From a virus (lineage: Duplodnaviria; Heunggongvirae; Uroviricota; Caudoviricetes): a stretch of DNA of 17,376 nucleotides. A program made the position numbers and the translations under genes. Within the stretch, counting starts at the first letter, position 1. Each line of letters begins with the position of its first letter. A model generated the notes under the pieces. The model was given only the letters and a program-made list of their open reading frames with translations. It ran no database searches and had not been told where the DNA came from. Shown here one piece after another: positions 3,291-3,683 of this stretch. The stretch lies in IMG/VR virus record IMGVR_UViG_2541047431_000017, one strand, 5' to 3'.

Positions 3291-3683
3291 ATGGAGACTG
3301 TTTTTGACGCACTGAAAGCGATGGGAAAAGCCACGTCGGTATAGCTGGCTGCGCGACTTGATATCAGTCGTGAAGAAGTACTGAACGAGCTGTGGGAACT
3401 GAAAAAGGCTGGCTTCGTTGATAAAAGCGTATACACCTGGCGTGTGGCTGATAACAACGTTCAGCAGGAACAGCCAGCGCCAGAAGAAACCACCACGGCA
3501 ACAGAAGCGAAAATCTCAGAGTGCGATTTAACCGCGACGATTGAACAACGCGGACCACAAACGGCGGATGAACTGGCTACGCTGTTCGGTACAACATCCC
3601 GCAAAGTTGCTTCAACGCTGGCAATGGCAATCAGCAAAGGTCGTCTGATTCGCGTAAACCAGAACGGTAAAATTCGTTACTGA
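3291..3683 (+). pseudogene. wHTH (DUF1627-like) phage protein, 5' part: in-frame amber codon and 3' truncation by IS insertion
   Basis: ATG at 3291 with a GGGAGG SD. In-frame TAG at 3342-3344 after 17 codons. The frame then continues (ORF track 3444..3683) to a TGA that is the first three bases of the IS element. Confidence 0.5.

Follow-up and report, generated by a model that had tools for sequence, protein, structure and literature searches.

The TAG triplet at codon 18 of the gene that begins at position 3291 of the window (the whole stretch of 17,376 nucleotides that was analysed, from virus record IMGVR_UViG_2541047431_000017) arose by a G-to-T transversion that changed Glu18 to an amber codon. 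From sequence comparison it is very probably a plain nonsense mutation that abolishes the function of the YdaW/DUF1627 gene of prophage Sp9. Ribosomes initiating at the strong Shine–Dalgarno (SD) sequence and ATG of this gene would stop after 17 residues, inside the first helix of the helix-turn-helix (HTH) motif of the predicted N-terminal winged-helix domain; the mutant gene could encode from its own start only the 17-codon peptide. Hundreds of published O157:H7 genomes carry the nonsense allele, an ordinary case of pseudogenisation in a defective prophage.

Similarity searches identify the gene as the YdaW/DUF1627 gene of Sp9, a lambdoid prophage of Escherichia coli O157:H7. This region of the window is 100% identical to Sp9 of O157:H7 Sakai and to the equivalent prophage of EDL933, and 99.8% identical to ompW-integrated prophages (PPompW) of O145:H28. 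The intact protein comprises 244 amino acids and matches Pfam DUF1627 (PF07789) over residues 84–236 with an E-value of 8.4e-93, above the gathering score; the window fragment 3345–3680 also matches PF07789 above the gathering score (E = 3.8e-22), and the intact protein also matches phrog_630 (E = 6.7e-123). A ydaW-family gene lies directly 3′ of O/P-like replication genes in PPompW, Rac-SA53, Sakai Sp9, EDL933, O55:H7 and K-12 Rac.

The features of the locus are collected in Table 1. As the original prediction described, an ATG with a GGGAGG SD is followed by TAG at codon 18, with the frame continuing beyond it; all three are seen directly in the sequence and its translation. The spacer between SD and ATG is 6 nt, the duplex of the SD with the 3′ end of the 16S rRNA has an energy of −10.3 kcal/mol, and the SD is identical in the ydaW-family genes of O145 PPompW and Rac-SA53. 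After the 17 sense codons and the TAG, the frame is open for 112 codons up to IS629, and it resumes past the element for a further 115 codons (4995–5339). Approximately 226 codons after the TAG are free of stops, for which the chance expectation is (61/64)^226, or approximately 2e-5; the stretch is far longer than chance would allow, and so is genuine coding sequence broken by one internal stop.

Table 1. Coordinates of the ydaW-family gene, its amber codon and the IS629 insertion in the window.
Feature	Position	Strand	Remarks
Shine–Dalgarno GGGAGG of the ydaW-family gene	3279..3284	+	direct reading; 6 nt 5′ of the ATG
Authentic start (ATG 3291–3293) and 17 sense codons (METVFDALKAMGKATSV)	3291..3341	+	start also annotated in intact homologues
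Amber codon TAG	3342..3344	+	mutated base T at 3342, ancestral G; GAG Glu18 to TAG
Post-stop 5′ body of the gene, untranslated	3345..3680	+	remainder of predicted wHTH 1 (to residue ~52), linker, predicted wHTH 2 (77–130)
TTAC target-site duplication, left copy	3677..3680	.	comparison with the uninterrupted Sakai sequence
IS629 (IS3 family), 1310 bp	3681..4990	+	orfA 3735–4061, orfB 4058–4948
−1 frameshift pseudoknot of IS629	4016–4132		Rfam ALIL, 121.5 bits
TTAC target-site duplication, right copy	4991..4994	.	comparison with the uninterrupted Sakai sequence
3′ fragment of the ydaW-family gene	4995..5339	+	residues 131–244 and stop codon; predicted disordered region and long C-terminal helix

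The ancestral state of codon 18 is evident from its relatives. DNA alignments show GAG at this codon for PPompW and GAA for Rac-SA53; O55:H7 TB182A has G at gene position 52, and the translation of K-12 YdaW has Glu18. All four use the same SD and ATG. Homologues were also compared as 90%-identity clusters of the protein database, of which the best 120 were taken: all 117 that cover this column have Glu18, and the protein begins at the same Met in 113 of the 120. The residue normally present at the site, which the original prediction had left between Gln, Trp, Tyr and others, is Glu. Two marks of a nonsense pseudogene, a sense codon at the position and a common upstream start in the orthologues, are therefore present at this locus.

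An IS-free gene of 735 bp was reconstructed by joining 3291–3680 to 4995–5339, with IS629 and one TTAC copy removed. This reconstructed gene is identical to those of Sakai and EDL933, and has a single difference, G52T (window 3342), from the genes of O55:H7 TB182A and O145:H28 PPompW. Because G52T is the sole difference from these ancestor-like alleles, the TAG is assigned to a G-to-T transversion taking Glu18 to amber. The two alleles, both intact (WP_000450692.1 and BCI48946.1, respectively; 244 aa), share 734 of 735 bases with the window gene and lie on a common Sp9-type backbone (dicA/dicC-type immunity region, ydaT, O/P-like replication genes, paa and hokD), but carry G rather than T at gene position 52 and have no IS629; in TB182A the gene is intact, on the backbone with paa and hokD.

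The distribution of the two alleles was followed with a 59-mer centred on the TAG, counting exact matches in complete E. coli records and taking serotypes from an evenly spaced sample. The TAG form is matched exactly in 293 records, and all of the serotyped ones in the sample shown are O157:H7. For the GAG form there are 311 records with an exact match, belonging to other serotypes (O55:H7 DEC5A, O145, O111, O45:H2, O121 and others), and each O157:H7 record in the sample shown differs from this form by a single mismatch. As O55:H7 carries GAG and O157:H7 carries TAG, the mutation arose after the split from these O55:H7 strains and was clonally inherited in O157:H7, and G52T in Sp9 ydaW is a lineage marker for O157:H7 versus O55:H7 in the genomes sampled. 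The same counts bear on whether the T at 3342 could be a sequencing or assembly error. Several single-base indels relative to Sakai lie in homopolymer runs of the window (11505, 14977 and 15374) and may be assembly noise, but Sakai, EDL933 and other complete records, 293 in all and each assembled independently, have the same T; because of this recurrence in hundreds of independent assemblies, sequencing error is excluded, and we assign it a probability close to nil.

An AlphaFold (AF2) model of an intact homologue with 99% identity (m7434401504ba; mean pLDDT 61, with 75–84 in the folded parts) has tandem winged helix-turn-helix (wHTH) domains at residues 1–52 and 77–131 (about 130), disordered linkers, and a C-terminal helix at residues 193–241. 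Foldseek neighbours of the model are the winged helices of ArsR/SmtB, MarR, FeoC and ScpB proteins, with weak E-values (at least 3.8e-3) and alignments giving an rmsd of 1–2 Å over approximately 56 aligned columns; the top match, ScpB, is itself a tandem winged-helix protein. Pfam HTH models at the N-terminus score just under threshold (HTH_20, 25.9 bits against 27). Given the model, its structural neighbours and these near-threshold matches, the winged-helix segment proposed in the original prediction was a reasonable guess, and the predicted tandem winged helices and C-terminal helix offer a possible structural lead for DUF1627, a family without known function.

In the model, Glu18 is positioned within the helix formed by residues 16–23 (pLDDT approximately 80), the first helix of the HTH motif of the predicted N-terminal wHTH. 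Since the stop falls within this helix, it is likely that no functional YdaW is produced; low-level natural UAG read-through or SD-independent re-initiation may nonetheless occur, as far as can be judged from sequence alone. The 226 codons downstream carry no further lesion in Sakai or EDL933. Such an unbroken frame is expected of a very young mutation and is uninformative on selection. The post-stop frame offers no material for a dN/dS-type test: there is no variation among the O157:H7 copies, and the nonsense site is their sole difference from the ancestor-like allele.

It could be argued, as one option in the original prediction had it, that the 17-codon ORF simply ends at the TAG and that translation re-initiates at CTG 3345 or GTG 3444, yielding, at least in the absence of the IS, a functional truncated YdaW in which the second wHTH and the C-terminal helix are retained. 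Ribosomes of E. coli are known to re-initiate after premature stops, the frame downstream of the TAG is open, and both candidate starts have been adopted in annotations: PGAP begins the EDL933 gene at the CTG right after the TAG (226 aa), and the Sakai re-annotation takes the GTG that corresponds to window 3444 (193 aa). We consider this very unlikely, however, as downstream starts are confined to annotations of the mutant allele, with 113 of 120 homologue clusters beginning at the upstream Met; homologues starting near 3444 with a ribosome-binding site of their own, which would make the upstream ATG irrelevant, were sought and none was found. GTG 3444, the first canonical in-frame start, lies 100 nt past the stop and has no SD (−1.5 versus −10.3 kcal/mol), and the SD energies at all downstream in-frame candidates range from −0.4 to −5.5 kcal/mol, compared with −10.3 kcal/mol at the true start. 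According to the model, a product from GTG 3444 would be devoid of the entire first wHTH; in the window, IS629 would cut it off after 79 residues by bringing in a TGA.

Expression through amber suppression, which the original prediction also raised, or through programmed read-through, would make the TAG a dosage or regulatory device. The base following the TAG is C, a comparatively weak termination context in E. coli, and the downstream frame is intact in IS-free strains. A device of this kind is nevertheless extremely improbable, as the stop is conserved in no relative: Glu occupies the position in 117 of 117 clusters, none of the homologue clusters shows a stop or a gap pattern that would point to one, and the sister lineage O55:H7 has GAG. 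No suppressor tRNA was found within the window, whose two tRNAs, ileZ-like and argO, have the anticodons CAT and TCT, and wild E. coli isolates are not known to carry amber suppressors as a rule. No stimulatory RNA structure was detected 3′ of the TAG (MFE of −21.8 versus a shuffle mean of −22.2; z = 0.14), and a scan against Rfam gave no match overlapping the TAG site. With the stop present in no relative, these anticodons and no structure, dependence on amber suppression is unsupported, and a simple nonsense mutation remains the preferred reading.

The original prediction was also correct that the gene is interrupted by an IS: a 1310-bp IS629 is present, with a TTAC duplication on both sides. 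The element is 100% identical over 1310 bp to annotated IS629 copies, its orfA and orfB match the IS3 transposase model (NCBIfam), and it opens with TGA, which closes the ydaW frame immediately after Tyr130. In Sakai and EDL933 the TAG is present with no IS within the gene, and the IS629/ydaW junction was found in none of 5,426 complete E. coli genomes, nor in GTDB representative genomes or IMG/VR. As the TAG occurs in the IS-free Sakai and EDL933 genes, and none of the 293 complete records with the TAG carries the IS, the nonsense mutation came first and IS629 second; by this comparison the insertion is confined to the source strain, where an already dead gene was split at codon 130/131. Of the proposal that the TAG is a second inactivating lesion, the nonsense mutation itself is thus borne out by the GAG Glu codon and the same start in homologues, whereas its place as the second of the two lesions is not, the TAG being older than IS629.

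The insertion resembles the IS629-driven small-scale polymorphism of O157:H7 prophages, in that a 1310-bp, 100% identical IS629 with a short target duplication lies in a prophage gene; it differs in that the insertion site is absent from the genomes searched and the target gene was already inactivated. IS629 at 3681 is a strain-specific marker, and nothing still working was inactivated by it. There is also an ORF of 141 codons (4914–5339) with its ATG inside the right end of IS629 and in frame with the ydaW 3′ fragment. An IS–gene hybrid product from this ORF is possible but probably fortuitous, with a 1-in-3 chance of the frames matching.

YdaW of the K-12 Rac cryptic prophage (b1361; DUF1627/PF07789, phrog_630) has the same N-terminus (METVFDALKAMGKATS[VI] and 13 further residues), sits just 3′ of the replication genes, and is likewise a decayed copy in a cryptic prophage. 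It differs in that it keeps Glu18 and has a C-terminus that is replaced after approximately residue 148 (186 aa), whereas the O157:H7 Sp9 copy has been killed at codon 18 by a point mutation and, in the window, is also split by IS629. YdaW has been listed among predicted transcription factors (PMC9308461), and in an overexpression screen a clone of K-12 Rac ydaW came out as a ‘blocker’ of a retron toxin (bioRxiv 10.1101/2020.06.22.160242); beyond the predicted transcription factor and this ‘blocker’ hit, no function is reported in the papers that mention ydaW or DUF1627. The lambdoid Sp9 has been reported to be impaired in its repressor, recombination, portal and head functions and yet to excise spontaneously (PMC2669165). 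The words ‘nonsense’ and ‘amber’ are absent from the main text of that Sakai prophage paper, which lists the Sp9 defects.

The biological weight of the nonsense mutation is low, as it adds one more decayed gene without known function to a prophage documented as defective. Its value lies rather in annotation, where ydaW of O157:H7 is to be recorded as a pseudogene, instead of as a CDS with a CTG or GTG start. At present the O157:H7 allele is annotated as a shortened CDS and not as a pseudogene, at 6146–6826 of the EDL933 sequence compared (from the CTG after the TAG) and at 6245–6826 of the Sakai sequence compared (from the GTG at codon 52). That loss, or leaky low expression, of the tandem winged-helix YdaW was selected in the O157:H7 ancestor, and did not become established by drift, is highly improbable; if true, the TAG would be an adaptive step in the transition from O55:H7 to O157:H7, with the retron-toxin ‘blocker’ result for K-12 ydaW (bioRxiv 10.1101/2020.06.22.160242) providing a possible route to an interplay between prophage and defence.

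Several other differences from Sakai lie elsewhere in the prophage. A 1-bp deletion in a short A run at 11505 splits the Sp9 DNA methylase gene (ECs_1780, 1059 nt) into the overlapping ORFs 10823–11545 and 11524–11880; the cause is either a true frameshift, which would make the gene a pseudogene, or a mistake in assembling the homopolymer. Single-base indels are present in the lysis region at 14977, 15374 and 15684, two of them in A/T homopolymer runs, and these may be frameshifts or assembly noise. In addition, 25 substitutions are clustered (window 12988–13582) in a 635-aa ORF (12620–14527), and between this ORF and the holin gene a 434-bp stretch (14534–14967) stands in place of approximately 150 bp of Sakai sequence. 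A database search with the late region (14300–15200) gave a best identity of 99.6%, with the best matches at 99.4–99.6%; these are located at record coordinates other than those of the Sp9 ydaW matches in the same records, and probably sit in other O157 prophages. The comparison suggests a mosaic late region, formed by recombination between resident lambdoid prophages. Scanning with Rfam also revealed the sok antitoxin RNA (7146–7295, + strand) beside hokD/gef, STnc100 (12263–12471, + strand), and the anti-GcvB sRNA AgvB (12473–12532, − strand), which is positioned just downstream of the ileZ/argO tRNA pair.
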